A DNA stretch of 50,298 nucleotides from Escherichia phage JMPW2: sequence record NC_041873.1. One strand, 5' to 3'. The notes under the pieces were generated by a model, which saw only the letters and a program-made list of their open reading frames with translations, ran no database searches and was not told the origin of the DNA. A program made the translations under genes and the position numbers. Of the stretch, positions 120-36,152 are shown in pieces; within the stretch, counting starts at the first letter, position 1; the number at the start of each line of letters is the position of its first letter.

Positions 120-143
120 CGATTACGATTACGATTGATTGCG
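120..143. repeat. tandem CGATTA hexamer repeats
   Basis: cgattacgattacgattgattgcg. Confidence 0.8.
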
Positions 144-179
144 TGTTAATCATTGTATATGATTTGCCTAAATCGCAAT

Positions 180-300
180 CGTATACAAAATTACGCCAAA
201 TTACGCCTTATAATATACATATAGATATATGTATATATATAATATATAAGTGTTTTTTTATTTATATATATAGATACTATTATTTGTAATATGGTTGTAT
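180..300. repeat. extremely AT-rich tract with TA-alternating palindrome
   Basis: tacatatagatatatgta inverted repeat and (TA)n runs. Confidence 0.8.
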
Positions 301-395
301 AGCGTGTCTTTTATGTTAATCGTTGGATGCTCTGATTATGATTCTCATGTTTATATATACAGTAGTTTTATCGGCGCACATTTATTTAGGGAAAT

Positions 396-422
396 CGATT
401 AACACGATTAACACGATTAACC
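396..422. repeat. three tandem 9-mers CGATTAACA
   Basis: cgattaacacgattaacacgattaacc. Confidence 0.9.
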
Positions 423-31235: not shown

Positions 31236-32350
31236 ATGTTCCAGGTGTTCACATCAAGTCAGCTTTCTAATGACGAGTATCATAGCAACGAAGGTTGGGC
31301 GGCAGAGTATGTAAGCGGTTCTAGCCTTGCAGAAATTTATCAGACTTGCCCGGCTAACTGGAGATTCAAGAAGAATGAGACAACGAAGGCGCTGGAGTTT
31401 GGTACTCAGTCGCATACCAACTTTGAGAGCCGAGATCTGTTTACTGCAACGTATGCACGTTGTCCGGCTCCGTCAGAGTTCAAGGATCTGATTACGTCAC
31501 AAGCCGCACTGGCTGCAAAATTAAAATCTTTCGGCCTGAAAGGTACATCCGGTAAGCAGTACCCGGACCTCATCAAGATGATGGTTGATTGCGGTGAAGA
31601 GCTAAACGTCCAATATCTGATCGAGTTGATTGCGGAAGCAGAGGCGCGCTCTGAAGGAAAGAAATTGGTTGACGCTGACAAATACGACGCTTGCATGAAG
31701 ATGAGAGCAATCCTTGAACAAAATCCTGATCACGAAGCGTGCATCAACAGTGAAACGGCGCAGCGTGAGATTTCAATCTTCGGTGAGATATCCGGCGTCA
31801 AGGTTAAGGTTCGACTTGACCATCTGGACTACAAAGAGAATGTTCCAGGTCGTGTCCTGACTGGTTATGATGAGAATGGAGATCCGGTATTCGAAGATGT
31901 TATTTTCCCTGAAGCACTGATGAGAATGGAGATCCGGTATTCGAAGATGTTATTTTCCCTGAAGCACTGATTATCACTGACTTCAAAACAACAATGAGCG
32001 CCAACCCGTTAGAGTTCCCGAGACTGGCATACAATCACGGGTATTATCTGAAAATGGCCTTGCAGCATGATCTGCTACGACGCGCAATCCAGGCTGGCGC
32101 TTTTGAAGGCAACTTCCCGGAATATATCCCGATCGTAGTTCGATTGCTGGCTCAGGAGAAAAAAGAGCCTTACATCGCACTTGCTTACCGTATGACTATG
32201 GAGCAAATCAGGATCGGTCGTAGCCAGTATGTTAGCGTAGTCCACACTTACAAGGCTTGCTCTGAAATGGATGTTTGGCCTGGGTACGCTGGCGACGCAA
32301 GCGAGATTGAACTTGAAACGCCATCATGGGTGCGTTACCAAAATAAGTAA
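31236..32350 (+). pseudogene. PD-(D/E)XK recombination exonuclease, frameshifted by 50-bp tandem duplication
   Basis: 31871..31920 and 31921..31970 are identical; removing one copy fuses ORFs 31236..31970 and 31994..32350 in frame and restores ...FPEALIITDFKTT... Confidence 0.6.
31871..31970 (+). repeat. perfect 50-bp direct tandem duplication (2 copies)
   Basis: tgagaatggagatccggtattcgaagatgttattttccctgaagcactga repeated exactly. Confidence 0.95.
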
Positions 32351-33117: not shown

Positions 33118-33531
33118 ATGCATATTATCACTGGCGAGATCCGCAAAGAACCTAAGATTCTTGAACGTAACGGCGGCAATACTTATATCATCGAACTGGC
33201 AGAAAGCTATAAGCCTCGTGATGGCGATCGTGAATACACCAACTACACATTCTTTTTTAGCGACGGTGGAAAGCCTGGCCTTGCTGATTGGTATCGTGAA
33301 GCGTTTCAGGTGGGTCGGGTAATTTCAGTATCTTGCGAATCTCTGAAGATTTATTCACGCGAGCATAACGGAACGGTTTATAACTCTCTGCAAGCGGCAG
33401 ACTTCCCGAAGTTGGTATTTAGTCAACGAGGGCAAAGCAATCAACAACGAGCACCGCAGCAACAACAGCGAACGCAATCACAGCCACAGCCAAATCCTCA
33501 ATCAACTTTCGATGATGATATCCCGTTCTAA
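33118..33531 (+). CDS. ssb: single-stranded DNA-binding protein
   Basis: Gln/Pro-rich linker ending in the canonical SSB tail DDDIPF. Confidence 0.7.
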   Translation: MHIITGEIRKEPKILERNGGNTYIIELAESYKPRDGDREYTNYTFFFSDGGKPGLADWYREAFQVGRVISVSCESLKIYSREHNGTVYNSLQAADFPKLVFSQRGQSNQQRAPQQQQRTQSQPQPNPQSTFDDDIPF

Positions 33532-33560
33532 CAAAAATCCCCGCAATGCGGGGATTTTAT
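33531..33560. terminator. bidirectional terminator
   Basis: ccccgc aat gcgggg hairpin flanked by A run and T run between convergent genes. Confidence 0.65.
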
Positions 33561-35116
33561 CATTTGGACTTCAACATTTTTATCTCTTCTTGTAACTCTT
33601 CAACTTTCTTTATTGTATCCTGTAAAGCTCTCATAGTGTCAAGCAATAAAGGAGTTGTATCAAGCTCAAGCCTTTCAACTTTTGGCCCGTTTAGCTCGTG
33701 GCTCTCATACACCCTTCTCTTAACATATAGATTGTCGATCTCTTCTATCTCCTGAGCTATAACACCTCTCCTTACCCTTTCTTGCTCATCATCGTTAAAT
33801 ATAAAGTTCCTAAATCTCATTGATTTTATGTTGTTGTATGCAATGCTTGATTCATCATCCTTTATGCCGTGCTTTATATTTCTGTCAGATGCCGGAACCT
33901 GTTGGAAACTTCCAGCCCCTTGCGGTCCAGCGTAAGATATTTGCCCTGAAGCCATAAACCTGAAATGCATTTGCAGACCAATATTGCCTGCTCCATCCCT
34001 ATCTTGAGTGCCTACTGATATTTGTGCCCTGGGCCATTCAGGATTACCCGTAGTCATCATGCCAAATGCTACGCCGCCAACGTATCCCTGACCTCTGGTG
34101 TCACACGATCCAGCAATAAGTGATTGATAGTTTTCAGCACCACTATCAGCGGTGTAAGCATTACCCTGGAAGCATGAAGCAGACCACATCTGGTTGTAAC
34201 CCATAGATGTTTTCTGGCATAAAAACTGATTAGCTCTGAATCTATTGTTAGTCTCGAAGTAGTTTGCCCCCTCATAAAATAATAAAGCCCCAGCATAACC
34301 ATTATCGCTACGTTCTTTTCTGACGTAAATACCTGGCGTAGATATTCCATCAGGTGACATAATCATCAATGATGACAATATGGACTGACTACCCCAGCTA
34401 GAACCGTCCCATGAATTCCTTCCTGCACCTATAGCGCCAGTGGTGTTAATAGTAAGAAAGTTAACAGCATCATTTTCACCTAACCCAATATTTTTTCTTG
34501 ACTCTTTTTTATCCTCAAGACCAGCTAGATTGCCATCCTTAGTTAAAAGATTTTCAGCGTCAACGCTATTTGCTGCGTCCTTTGCTTCCTGCGCACTGAC
34601 TGCTGCTGCATCTTTTGCGCTAACCGCTGCATCGCGTGCAGCGTTGGCTGCGTCACGCGCTAATTCAGCCTGATTTTGCGCAGCTTGAGAATCAGATTTC
34701 GCCTGATTCACATCAGCAACTATTTGCTCAAGTTTATTCATATCAGCAACTATTTGCTCAAGTTTATTCATATCAAGCTGATTTATCAGGTCTATAGCTG
34801 CCGCAATCTCAGTCTCTTTGCTTTGATAGTATCGAAGAGTCTCGGCGACGTTTTGAGCTAATCCGTTAACGGTTAGAGAGTCATTAAGTAGGATCACATA
34901 CTTACCGTCATCGGCAGTCTGACCATCAGTAGAGATAGCCTTTAATTCTGTATCACTAACGATATCGCTAATCACAGCTAGCTTAATTGGTTGCTCAAGG
35001 AACACGATAGTTGCACCTACGCGAATAAGAGCAAGCTGGTCTTTCCATTTTGTATCGGTTCCGTGAACCGTTCCGTCTGCATCCATTGATGCAGTACCGC
35101 GTCGATATAAAGCCAT
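33560..35116 (-). CDS. tail fibre protein with C-terminal intramolecular chaperone-like domain
   Basis: Fibre-like N-terminus MALYRRGTASMDADGTVHGTDTKW; Ala/Gln coiled region; C-terminal coiled-coil ...LQDTIKKVEELQEEIKMLKSK. Confidence 0.7.
   Translation of the reverse strand: MALYRRGTASMDADGTVHGTDTKWKDQLALIRVGATIVFLEQPIKLAVISDIVSDTELKAISTDGQTADDGKYVILLNDSLTVNGLAQNVAETLRYYQSKETEIAAAIDLINQLDMNKLEQIVADMNKLEQIVADVNQAKSDSQAAQNQAELARDAANAARDAAVSAKDAAAVSAQEAKDAANSVDAENLLTKDGNLAGLEDKKESRKNIGLGENDAVNFLTINTTGAIGAGRNSWDGSSWGSQSILSSLMIMSPDGISTPGIYVRKERSDNGYAGALLFYEGANYFETNNRFRANQFLCQKTSMGYNQMWSASCFQGNAYTADSGAENYQSLIAGSCDTRGQGYVGGVAFGMMTTGNPEWPRAQISVGTQDRDGAGNIGLQMHFRFMASGQISYAGPQGAGSFQQVPASDRNIKHGIKDDESSIAYNNIKSMRFRNFIFNDDEQERVRRGVIAQEIEEIDNLYVKRRVYESHELNGPKVERLELDTTPLLLDTMRALQDTIKKVEELQEEIKMLKSK
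34712..34771 (-). repeat. perfect 30-bp in-frame tandem duplication inside tail fibre gene
   Basis: atcagcaactatttgctcaagtttattcat x2, encoding MNKLEQIVAD twice. Confidence 0.95.
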
Positions 35117-35135
35117 AATATAAACTCCTTAAGTA

Positions 35136-35155
35136 AATAGCACGAATTGCTAAAC
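35136..35155 (+). promoter_or_regulatory. palindromic box between primase and tail fibre genes
   Basis: aatagcacgaattgctaaac. Confidence 0.5.
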
Positions 35156-35192
35156 ACAGATTTTATCATCGCGCCATGAGTCTTGCAACGGG

Positions 35193-35218
35193 CAATAAAA
35201 AACCGCCCGAAGGCGGTT
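35193..35218 (-). terminator. rho-independent terminator after primase
   Basis: aaccgcccgaaggcggtt hairpin preceded by A run on + strand. Confidence 0.6.
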
Positions 35219-36152
35219 ATAGTAGATCACTTGCTGAGAATAACTTAGCTTGCATTCCTGAGCGGTATCCTCCCTGATTCGGGATGATTATTTTTAATTG
35301 TCTGTCGTCTGCCATGTATAAAGTTTCTTTATCAGATGGTTCGCACGCCACCCTTACCTCCCGATCTCCCTTGTATCTGTACGCAACCATTTCTAGATTT
35401 TCAGGAGTGAAGCAGGCCCATACCTCTTGCTTTGTGTGAAATGCAATATGCTGAGCATCAATCCAATTAAGGCATAAGTAGATCGCTTTTTCAGTTTTAC
35501 CAGTCACGGCAACCGAGCAACTTGTGTATTTCTTTGCATAAAATGACTCCCTACCCTCCTCATCAATAATCAAAATATTGCAAAACTCTTCATCAATACC
35601 GTCCTCGTGTACAAGTTGACATGGTATGGTGTGAAATACACTCTCGCCGCCATCCTCTCGACGTTTTACGCCAACGTCGAATGATTCAGTAGGTAGCGAC
35701 TCAAACATGCTTAGAGGTGTGTTTATGCGCTTCTCTGTGCGCTCCATAACTTTCATCACTGCCTCGTGTTCTGCCATCATAACGTTGACGCCAGCTACCG
35801 GAGTTCTTCGCGCTTTTTTGTTGGCCTTGACAATGTATTCCTGCGGAACCTTGCCGAGAAATCTTCCCAGGATATTTATACATTCGCTGTACGGCATACC
35901 AGTTAATTTCATCAACCAACCGACTCCAGAGTCGTTACCGCATGAGTTGCAGATCGCACCGCCGTCGCCCGGAGTGTTAAGGTTATCAGTCCAGCGAAAG
36001 CGGTCCTTACCCCCGCAGTTAGGGCAAGGTTGGTGTTTCTTATTAAAAACATCATTCGGCAATCCGCAGATTGATTGGAAAGCCTCGCGCCATAACCCCT
36101 TCATGTACGGCAAAACGTCCTCTTTCTGAAACATCATAAATTCTTCGTTCAC
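35217..36152 (-). CDS. DNA primase (zinc-ribbon type)
   Basis: CPNCGG...CNSCG zinc-binding pairs in N-terminal region; track start is GTG, ATG at 36137 also possible. Confidence 0.55.
   Translation of the reverse strand: MNEEFMMFQKEDVLPYMKGLWREAFQSICGLPNDVFNKKHQPCPNCGGKDRFRWTDNLNTPGDGGAICNSCGNDSGVGWLMKLTGMPYSECINILGRFLGKVPQEYIVKANKKARRTPVAGVNVMMAEHEAVMKVMERTEKRINTPLSMFESLPTESFDVGVKRREDGGESVFHTIPCQLVHEDGIDEEFCNILIIDEEGRESFYAKKYTSCSVAVTGKTEKAIYLCLNWIDAQHIAFHTKQEVWACFTPENLEMVAYRYKGDREVRVACEPSDKETLYMADDRQLKIIIPNQGGYRSGMQAKLFSASDLL

Follow-up and report, generated by a model that had tools for sequence, protein, structure and literature searches.

The window, by which we mean the whole 50,298-nucleotide stretch of Escherichia phage JMPW2 DNA that was analysed (NC_041873.1), contains a minus-strand open reading frame at 33560..35116 that encodes a protein of 518 aa. 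According to its published description, JMPW2 came from contaminated experiment samples. The reading frame was assigned as a lateral tail fibre gene from its match to PHROG 1980 'tail fiber protein' (E 1e-101, aa 14-518), from a Peptidase_S74 domain and from identical genes in phages SH2 and Henu5_2; an exact-protein look-up showed that JMPW2 and SH2 both have the identical protein on record as their tail fibre. It is located between recombination genes (an exonuclease, an Erf-like annealase and a putative ssDNA-binding protein gene) and primase/helicase genes, on the strand opposite to these flanking modules. The same synteny is annotated in SH2, Henu5_2 and T1, and a Drexlerviridae lateral tail fibre locus in this position has been described for the BASEL phages (PMC8594841). 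These data agree with the preliminary description, which had named a tail fibre gene, and by homology the gene belongs to the Drexlerviridae lateral tail fibre family (PHROG 1980). According to the literature, the function of lateral fibres in Drexlerviridae (virion fibre, surface-glycan binding) has never been directly demonstrated, and T1-like phages are believed not to need theirs on K-12 (PMC8594841).

All features of the gene are given in minus-strand orientation. The N-terminal 77 residues (34886..35116) were modelled as a beta-rich anchor with AF2 pLDDT of 82-95. The homology search identified 431 family representatives at E<=1e-3, and conservation across the whole family is limited to this N-terminal region, with invariant columns within aa 15-101; the BASEL paper likewise describes the gene as conserved at its 5' end only (PMC8594841). 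The anchor is followed by a predicted helix at aa 83-113 (34778..34870) carrying the conserved ETLRYYQSKET motif, for which pLDDT was only 53-58, and by a two-residue break at aa 114-115, directly ahead of the repeat described below. A long predicted alpha-helix (aa 116-184, 34565..34771) forms the putative shaft or helical bundle. Near the C-terminus lies an intramolecular chaperone domain, Peptidase_S74 (PF13884, aa 410-460, 33737..33889), which scored 34.1 bits against a Pfam gathering cut-off of 22 (E 3e-8).

Reading of the sequence and a script both located ATCAGCAACTATTTGCTCAAGTTTATTCAT at 34712-34741 and again at 34742-34771, with no mismatches and no spacer, as had been described earlier. 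On the coding strand copy 1, ATGAATAAACTTGAGCAAATAGTTGCTGAT, occupies 34742..34771 (codons 116-125), and the identical copy 2, which is extra in comparison with all other family members, occupies 34712..34741 (codons 126-135). Each copy encodes MNKLEQIVAD, so the reading frame is preserved, again as first reported; with a D immediately ahead of the repeat, DMNKLEQIVA is an equally valid way to write the duplicated peptide. The exact period-30 match runs 4 bp further (ATCA) and ends at 34775. Read on the coding strand, these four bases form a TGAT microhomology (34772..34775) just upstream of copy 1, and TGAT also closes each copy of the unit. Leftward the periodicity runs 6 bp more if one mismatch is allowed. 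Because periodicity extends past the 60-bp core on both sides, Tandem Repeats Finder reported a tract of 34706-34775 (period 30, 2.3 copies, 97% matches, score 133). No further occurrence of the 30-mer was found in the window on either strand, and the chance expectation for perfect 30-bp tandem pairs in 50 kb is about 4e-14.

A new promoter or an internal start created by the duplication was also considered. Three promoter-like sites were found in 33400-35300 against 4.4 expected, and the only one touching the repeat (34776..34749, 9/12 matches) is likewise within chance. No Shine-Dalgarno-like sequence was seen ahead of the repeated ATG, and both a new promoter and an internal start were rejected.

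Copy number in related phages

Comparison among related phages gave two copies in JMPW2, SH2 and Henu5_2 and one in all others examined. The fibre genes of vB_EcoS_SH2 (KY985004) and vB_Henu5_2 (PQ362312) are 100% identical to the window gene over 1557 bp, including both copies. These are distinct isolates: across 92-93% of the window, identity with their genomes is only 96.6-97.2%. In the fibre region the three are so close (99.7-99.96% identity over 10 kb) that they have to be counted as one evolutionary event. The number of copies is exactly two in all three, and no copy-number variation of the kind expected of a contingency locus was seen among these near-identical isolates.

The one-copy relatives covered were roughly a dozen Tunavirus genomes, a single metagenome contig and 88 representatives of the family. 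A single copy was found in phiD2-2, FCWL1, pSf-2, phi2457T and Shfl1, and in IMG/VR contigs of 50552, 50414, 50309, 50564 and 49372 bp; among the eight contigs of the IMG/VR search, two copies occurred in the window alone. Arithmetic on aligned spans (291 query against 261 record bases) indicated one copy in Sfin-1 to Sfin-6, ISF001 and ISF002, and also in S2_02, UP30, LHE71 and others. The JGI metagenomes yielded one contig, with one copy. T1 has one diverged copy, MDNLNNIVQE, and in the alignment each of the 88 family representatives has a gap of 10 columns at the repeat. A word-indexed protein search returned 21 proteins, all of <=353 aa, and confirmed single copies; a collection of 15 billion proteins contained no exact counterpart of the protein with one copy (508 aa) or with three copies (528 aa).

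The nearest one-copy allele is that of phiD2-2, a phage isolated on an rfaD (LPS-core) mutant. Over gene nucleotides 1-600 this allele differs from the window gene by the 30-bp indel and one of 21 bp and is otherwise 100% identical, and the flanks in both FCWL1 and phiD2-2 are 100% identical to those of the two-copy allele. The 30-mer itself is invariant even across phages that are 5-8% divergent over the gene, so that divergence between the copies has no power to date the duplication. On the alleles compared, the duplication is a derived state fixed in the JMPW2/SH2/Henu5_2 lineage. It receives no mention in the papers on JMPW2 or SH2 that were consulted and, as a 30-bp signature of this lineage, could help to trace these phages.

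Origin of the second copy

Where the unit is present once, TGATATGAAT and TGATGTGAAT flank it at a spacing of 30 bp. TGAT together with the next 6 nt forms this imperfect 10-bp direct repeat, in which TGAT is exact and TGATrTGAAT is shared at 9/10 positions; it was present in 10/10 one-copy alleles compared. The features characteristic of slipped-strand events were thus seen together: identical head-to-tail copies, a bracketing short repeat and an otherwise identical one-copy allele. Judged by its sequence, the one-copy allele is a substrate for slippage. In the ancestral one-copy allele the spacing of TGATATGAAT and TGATGTGAAT would have been exactly 30 bp. The most likely course of events is that, during replication, the ...GCTGAT end of a nascent strand paired wrongly with the TGAT upstream and the 30 nt were then copied a second time. 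The preliminary description had called the repeat a recent-looking product of slippage, and the single copy in relatives, the complete identity of phiD2-2 around the site and the flanking microhomology all speak for that view. By these features it is an ordinary length polymorphism of the slippage type.

The same short repeat could also have served for unequal exchange between sister genomes. Homologous or microhomology-mediated recombination of this kind might involve, for example, the RecE-like exonuclease and Erf-like annealing protein of the phage. Genes for an Erf-like annealase and an exonuclease VIII-like protein are indeed located about 1-3 kb away, and resection could allow annealing at the imperfect 10-bp direct repeat. 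For exchange driven by an annealase, however, 10 bp including a mismatch is very short, and the exonuclease reading frame in this genome is broken by a 50-bp duplication, though that break is later and genome-specific. Recombination and slippage leave outcomes that are inseparable from sequence alone; we regard recombination as rather unlikely and slippage as the probable mechanism.

A sequencing or assembly artefact, with one copy in the true genome, was suggested by the use of Ion Torrent sequencing and Newbler assembly for JMPW2, and by the presence in the same genome of a second perfect tandem duplication, of 50 bp at 31868-31967, which no relative shares and which breaks a reading frame. 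However, the published coverage is about 1,900-fold, the 60-bp tract lies well inside the read length, and exactly the same two-copy sequence is found in two other separately deposited genomes. Since SH2 and Henu5_2 carry the identical two-copy gene, the 30-bp duplication has to be considered real; the artefact explanation is largely refuted and in our estimate highly improbable. The likeness to the 50-bp duplication that had been drawn earlier holds in so far as both are perfect tandem duplications, and fails in that one is shared by three genomes whereas the other is unique to this genome and destroys a reading frame. That two copies are ancestral is the least credible possibility of all and is refuted by parsimony: perfect tandem repeats are readily deleted, but identical and precise loss would be needed in every other lineage, including T1 and the 88 representatives (about 45-95% identity), and the copies show zero divergence from each other.

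Predicted helix and consequences for the fibre

With the 89-sequence alignment AF2 modelled aa 116-184 as one helix of 69 residues, with pLDDT of 71 rising to 89-97, and a shallow alignment gave the same helix boundaries. The full-length model from the shallow alignment had a mean pLDDT of 42 and was unusable past aa 190. The two decapeptides are the first 20 residues of this predicted helix. Their placement in a coiled region, as originally predicted, is in agreement with the AF2 helix, with heptad autocorrelation in the family and with the helical-bundle counterpart in Depo32. A Foldseek search of the model of aa 1-213 against the PDB gave no match at E <= 0.001 and returned only generic small beta-barrels.

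The same helix contains a second length polymorphism. A 21-bp segment encoding AANAARD, one heptad (34631..34651), is present here and in pSf-2-type alleles and is missing in phiD2-2, FCWL1 and BIFF, as seen in the alignment with relatives.

Autocorrelation in the family at lags 7, 14, 21, 28 and 35 was 0.074-0.112 against a background of about 0.05, and the internal tandem repeats found in the family have unit lengths of only 7, 11, 21 or 35 aa. A 10-residue insert is off this register, since 10 = 7+3. A hydropathy period of 3.5 was best both for the whole shaft and for aa 136-190, and one of 3.05-3.10 for aa 100-140 alone. By a crude hydropathy score, the best register was continuous over aa 116-139 in a one-copy model and shifted by +3 in the two-copy protein.

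The second MNKLEQIVAD would sit at the start of a trimeric alpha-helical shaft, just distal to the virion anchor. Ten additional helical residues would add about 1.5 nm, and the heptad register downstream of the insert would be shifted by three positions, which corresponds to a stammer or decad. The suggestion that fibre length may change is compatible with this predicted gain; a simple extension is not what the broken heptad register predicts. M1, L4 and I7/V8, the unit's hydrophobic residues, could still fill core positions, so that the insert would be tolerated, with local overwinding expected near V136. Trimeric packing and the stammer are both predictions; the AF2 model is that of a monomer, and a trimeric coiled coil at aa 116-135 is present in no solved structure. 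Of the discontinuities that coiled coils tolerate, a stammer is the most strained, according to work on trimeric coiled coils (PMC4786415). Because the insert breaks the heptad/hendecad unit lengths kept by the other internal repeats of the family, a viable phage here appears to tolerate a predicted stammer at the base of its side fibre.

The duplication probably has little or no effect on infection: the allele is unchanged in three phages that were isolated separately and grown on K-12 strains, where lateral fibres are regarded as dispensable. Productive plating on MG1655 has been reported for SH2 (PMC7019758). Given the strain expected of a stammer, neutrality is not guaranteed. An adaptive origin, in which an extra decad at the junction of anchor and shaft was selected for reach, azimuthal orientation or hinge flexibility and altered adsorption or host range, draws on several observations: length variation among relatives is concentrated in the shaft, with a 7-aa indel and a 76-aa insert immediately downstream; coevolution experiments with phage EfV12-phi1 repeatedly selected for in-frame tandem duplications within a tail fibre gene (PMC6365445); and the allele has been kept unchanged in three isolates although a perfect repeat is prone to deletion. 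Against it, the duplication has a single origin in one tight lineage and lies far from the receptor-binding C-terminal part, all recorded hosts are K-12 derivatives without O-antigen, on which the fibre is thought dispensable, and a unit length that violates the family periodicity looks accidental and not tuned. We consider selection of this kind improbable. A more specific proposal, to which we give still less credence, is that the predicted stammer, placed exactly where anchor and shaft of a trimeric fibre meet, works as a naturally occurring 'register mutant': the whole fibre would be turned or loosened with respect to the tail, and the insert would have been kept for better adsorption in this lineage of T1-like phages isolated on laboratory K-12 strains. 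If this were true, the phage would offer a simple natural system for testing the control that shaft register and length exert over siphovirus side-fibre function.

Overall, this is a genuine heritable 30-bp in-frame duplication of one Tunavirus lineage (JMPW2, SH2, Henu5_2); we think it likely that it arose by slippage and that its effect is small or neutral. On its own the duplication matters little, and it provides a clean example of a change in fibre-shaft length by a short in-frame duplication. A one-copy revertant, if it behaved differently, would make the repeat a useful tool for probing what lateral fibres do in Drexlerviridae.

Comparison with known systems

The closest described relatives are the Drexlerviridae lateral tail fibres, including T1 ST26 (YP_003919), which share with the window gene the position of the locus, the N-terminal anchor, the ETLRYYQ motif and a variable distal part. 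The T1 and window genes are 91% identical in nucleotide sequence over the first 150 nt, whereas in its distal two thirds the T1 fibre has no relationship to the window fibre (36-47% identity in alignment). The decapeptide at the junction occurs once in T1 and all other members, and twice in the window gene.

The anchor and helical-bundle region (aa 1-176) is homologous to the N-terminus of Depo32 of Klebsiella phage GH-K3 and of its relatives (PDB 7VYV, 7VZ3, 7LZJ; E 5e-41 for 7VYV/7LZJ). Depo32 is a homotrimer, and its region homologous to the window shaft has been described as a helical-bundle domain. Distally the two proteins differ: Depo32 continues as a beta-helix capsule depolymerase, and the window fibre as an unrelated domain followed by the S74 chaperone. 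Depo32-type depolymerases were considered as a structural template for the repeat on the strength of the sequence match and were rejected, since their N-terminal 185 residues are not visible in the cryo-EM maps. At the opposite end, aa 388-518 share the endosialidase-type C-terminal chaperone (PF13884) with the L-shaped tail fibre pb1 of T5 (8HQZ chain d, E 4e-10); this homology is C-terminal only and unrelated to the duplicated segment.

Insertion of three residues into heptads is expected to produce a local 10/3 periodicity and overwinding (PMC4786415), and the insert in the window likewise amounts to 7+3, the spacing of a coiled-coil stammer or decad (Brown, Cohen and Parry 1996; Hartmann et al., PMC4786415). 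The stammer of the window fibre is predicted from sequence and would result from a recent duplication, unlike a conserved structural feature.

Duplications of the same kind are known from other fibre genes. Those of 1.8 kb in Enterococcus phage EfV12-phi1 (PMC6365445) and those in T4 gp37 (Tetart et al. 1996, as cited in PMC6365445) are also in frame, head to tail and inside a fibre gene whose protein remains functional. The EfV12-phi1 and T4 duplications are of large size and variable copy number, lie near the receptor-binding region and were demonstrably selected, whereas that in the window is 30 bp long, fixed at two copies and placed at the virion-proximal end of the fibre.

The repeat and the gene that carries it

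The 30-mer ATCAGCAACTATTTGCTCAAGTTTATTCAT occupies positions 34712-34741 and recurs, directly adjoining and without mismatch, at 34742-34771; no further occurrence was found by script in the rest of the window on either strand. The exact 30-bp period continues for four bases (ATCA) up to 34775 and extends leftward over six bases with one mismatch, which explains the wider span given by Tandem Repeats Finder (34706-34775, period 30, 2.3 copies, 97% matches, score 133). The chance expectation for a perfect 30-bp tandem pair in 50 kb is about 4e-14. The reading frame is kept: codons 116-125 correspond to 34742-34771, codons 126-135 to 34712-34741, and MNKLEQIVAD is encoded both times. The perfect back-to-back pair reported in the preliminary description was thus confirmed by reading of the sequence, by script and by Tandem Repeats Finder, and its in-frame second decapeptide by codon mapping.

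The repeat is contained in an ORF of 518 aa on the minus strand (33560..35116). Its assignment as a tail fibre gene is sound: the product matches PHROG 1980, "tail fiber protein" (E 1e-101), aa 410-460 exceed the gathering score for the Pfam Peptidase_S74 intramolecular-chaperone domain, and an identical 518-aa protein is recorded as "tail fiber protein [Escherichia phage JMPW2]" and as the tail fibre of vB_EcoS_SH2 (SH2). In a search of solved structures, aa 1-176 matched Klebsiella phage depolymerases (7VYV, 7VZ3 and 7LZJ, E 5e-41) and aa 388-518 the T5 L-shaped tail fibre (8HQZ_d, E 4e-10). The gene is flanked on one side by an exonuclease, an Erf-like annealase and a small ORF, whose amino acid sequence resembles an ssDNA-binding protein, and on the other by a primase. 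This is the position of the lateral tail fibre locus of Drexlerviridae, where conservation is confined to the far 5′ end (BASEL study, PMC8594841); surface-glycan binding by these fibres has "never been directly demonstrated" (PMC8594841; also PMC13164509). A terminator-like hairpin (35218..35201, minus strand; 7 pairs, then a T run) lies directly 3′ of the primase gene, and the fibre start codon is preceded, at a distance of about 45 bp, by a promoter-like site (35188..35160, minus strand; TTGCAA-17-TAAAAT with TG). Both (35160-35218) may serve the transcription of the fibre gene itself, the scan counts being no higher than chance.

Copy number among relatives and origin of the second copy

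Megablast with the fibre gene matched 63 phage records, three of which, two of SH2 and one of vB_Henu5_2 (Henu5_2), were 100% identical across all 1557 bp. Both phages carry the two-copy tract. Their genomes are distinct from the window, 92-93% of which they match at 96.6-97.2% identity; across the 10 kb surrounding the fibre gene the figure is 99.7-99.96%. JMPW2 (KU194205), a T1-like phage of 50,298 bp, came from contaminated experiment samples; its Ion Torrent reads, at about 1,900-fold coverage, were assembled with Newbler (PMC4919409). An assembly artefact of that genome was rejected, as SH2 and Henu5_2 have the same two-copy tract.

The 30-mer is present exactly once, unchanged, in phiD2-2, FCWL1, pSf-2, phi2457T and Shfl1, and searching IMG/VR with it (the genome's own entry there is IMGVR_UViG_2974570372_000001) revealed a single copy in five further contigs; one metagenome contig also has one. 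For the Sfin series, ISF001, ISF002, S2_02, UP30, LHE71, vB_SsoS_008 and others, a 361-bp query over the site aligned 291 query bases with 261 record bases, that is, one copy. T1 has one diverged copy, MDNLNNIVQE. An exhaustive HMMER search for the fibre family gave 431 representatives; all 88 that were aligned with the window protein have a 10-column gap opposite one decapeptide, and where the shaft begins the family conserves a single copy of the motif D-[MLW]-x-x-[LF]-x-x-[LIV]. Neither a one-copy (508 aa) nor a three-copy (528 aa) version of the exact allele was found among 15 billion proteins. Comparison of related phages therefore upholds the duplication, and because SH2 and Henu5_2 share two copies and all other relatives read have one, we infer that two copies are the derived state, gained a single time and now fixed in the JMPW2 / SH2 / Henu5_2 lineage.

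Over nt 1-600 of the gene phiD2-2 is 100% identical to the window except for two indels, the 30-bp duplication and a 21-bp segment encoding AANAARD (window 34631-34651), which it lacks; the only remaining difference in the gene is one mosaic patch at about nt 600-900. The duplication therefore arose on a sequence background of which a one-copy form survives. The coding strand of every one-copy allele reads ...cagcTTGAT ATGAAT...GTTGC TGAT GTGAAT..., the unit being flanked by TGATATGAAT and TGATGTGAAT, a direct repeat (exact over 4 nt, 9/10 overall) 30 bp apart. Such an arrangement is the classical substrate for replication slippage, which probably produced the second copy. A less likely route is unequal exchange at this direct repeat, to which the phage exonuclease and annealase might have contributed. 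The recent slippage proposed in the preliminary description is favoured by the near-identical allele of phiD2-2 and the flanking microhomology, but not by the perfect identity of the copies: the 30-mer is unchanged even between phages 5-8% divergent across the fibre gene, so this identity is little guide to age.

Predicted structure of the fibre shaft

The AlphaFold2 model of aa 1-213 (89-sequence alignment, mean pLDDT 84; a shallow alignment gave the same boundaries) contains a beta-rich anchor (aa 1-76, pLDDT 82-95), a helix (aa 83-113, pLDDT 53-58), a break (aa 114-115) and a long helix (aa 116-184, pLDDT 71, then 89-97). The decapeptide pair forms residues 1-20 of this predicted 69-residue helix. 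No experimental template was found for the repeat region, Foldseek with the model gave nothing significant, and the homologous N-terminal region of the Klebsiella phage depolymerase Depo32, described as a helical-bundle domain, is not visible in cryo-EM maps (PMC10581125). In 144 full-length family representatives, the helical region has its same-residue autocorrelation maxima at lags 7, 14, 21, 28 and 35 (0.074-0.112 against a background of about 0.05). Detectable tandem repeats in this sample have units of 7 aa (28 proteins), 11 aa (5), 21 aa (5) and 35 aa (3); none has a 10-aa unit. These data suggest a heptad-based coiled coil and, with the predicted helix, agree with the earlier placement of the repeat in a coiled region.

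Ten extra helical residues are predicted to lengthen the shaft by about 1.5 nm. As 10 = 7 + 3, the downstream register would move three positions. A hydropathy-based scan gave a single continuous register for aa 116-139 of the one-copy model and a +3 shift for the two-copy protein, although the scan is crude and aa 100-140 alone have no clean 3.5 period. Across the second copy, a/d positions could still be filled by M1, L4, I7/V8 and then V of the next segment. This would place the discontinuity near V136, with a core spacing of 3-4-3-3-4; a stammer of this kind would give local 10/3 periodicity with overwinding (PMC4786415). We place moderate confidence in this register shift or stammer. The unit length, off the heptad register, is the sole unusual detail of the duplication.

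The shaft is a mosaic zone whose length varies. The one-heptad AANAARD segment of the same helix is absent from phiD2-2, FCWL1 and BIFF, and alleles of the pSf-2 / Shfl1 type have an additional helical segment of 228 bp (76 aa) beginning directly after ...AANAARD. The phiD2-2 gene matches the window at 99-100% identity outside one patch of 67-89% (about 34217-34517, nt 600-900, aa 200-300); the patch looks like recombinational replacement within the presumed receptor-binding part.

Significance of the duplication and comparison with the 50-bp repeat

SH2 is fully infectious on E. coli K-12 MG1655 (PMC7019758), and MC1061 and BW25113, both derived from K-12, are the hosts on record for SH2 and Henu5_2. 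By analogy with T5, T1-like phages are presumed not to need lateral fibres on K-12 laboratory strains, which lack O-antigen (PMC8594841). In the T1 stock MN153797 (DSM 50902) the fibre gene is split in two, with an N-terminal fragment of 151 aa (protein P0004) truncated within the helical shaft region, which is consistent with relaxed laboratory selection. Two IMG/VR Shigella phage contigs (L011, 50414 bp; L012, 50309 bp) have truncated or split lateral fibres of 272 and 228 aa. Such genes in T1-like genomes are consistent with dispensability in culture, or with sequencing errors. The simplest reading of the duplication is a tolerated, nearly neutral length polymorphism. Less probably, it might have been retained by selection; a precedent is phage EfV12-phi1, in which in-frame tail-fibre duplications of 1.8 kb were selected (PMC6365445). 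Overall, the duplication is real and its first interpretation essentially right. A fibre shaft has gained a short in-frame duplication, probably by slippage, which is nothing out of the ordinary, and the genomes concerned have been public since 2016. No discussion of it was found in the consulted publications that mention JMPW2 or SH2.

Short tandem repeats also occur at the left end of the window (120-421: CGATTA x2.8, AAATTACGCC x2, (TA)21 and CGATTAACA x2.9), a cluster possibly connected with the T1-like genome's packaging or terminal region. Both longer duplications are bounded by TGAT, at 34772-34775 (minus strand) for the 30-bp and 31968-31971 (plus strand) for the 50-bp repeat; the chance of a shared tetranucleotide in either orientation is roughly 1%.

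The likeness drawn earlier between these two is only partial. The 50-bp tandem repeat (31868-31967, with TGAT continuing to 31971) is perfect as well. The 50-mer is single-copy in SH2 and Henu5_2, and its doubling, private to the JMPW2 genome, breaks the RecE-like exonuclease ORF, 354 aa long in SH2, into pieces of 244 aa (31236..31970) and 118 aa (31994..32350). The doubling is a genuine inactivating mutation or else an artefact of Ion Torrent sequencing and Newbler assembly. The 30-bp duplication is thus lineage-fixed and in frame, whereas the 50-bp duplication is genome-private and disruptive.
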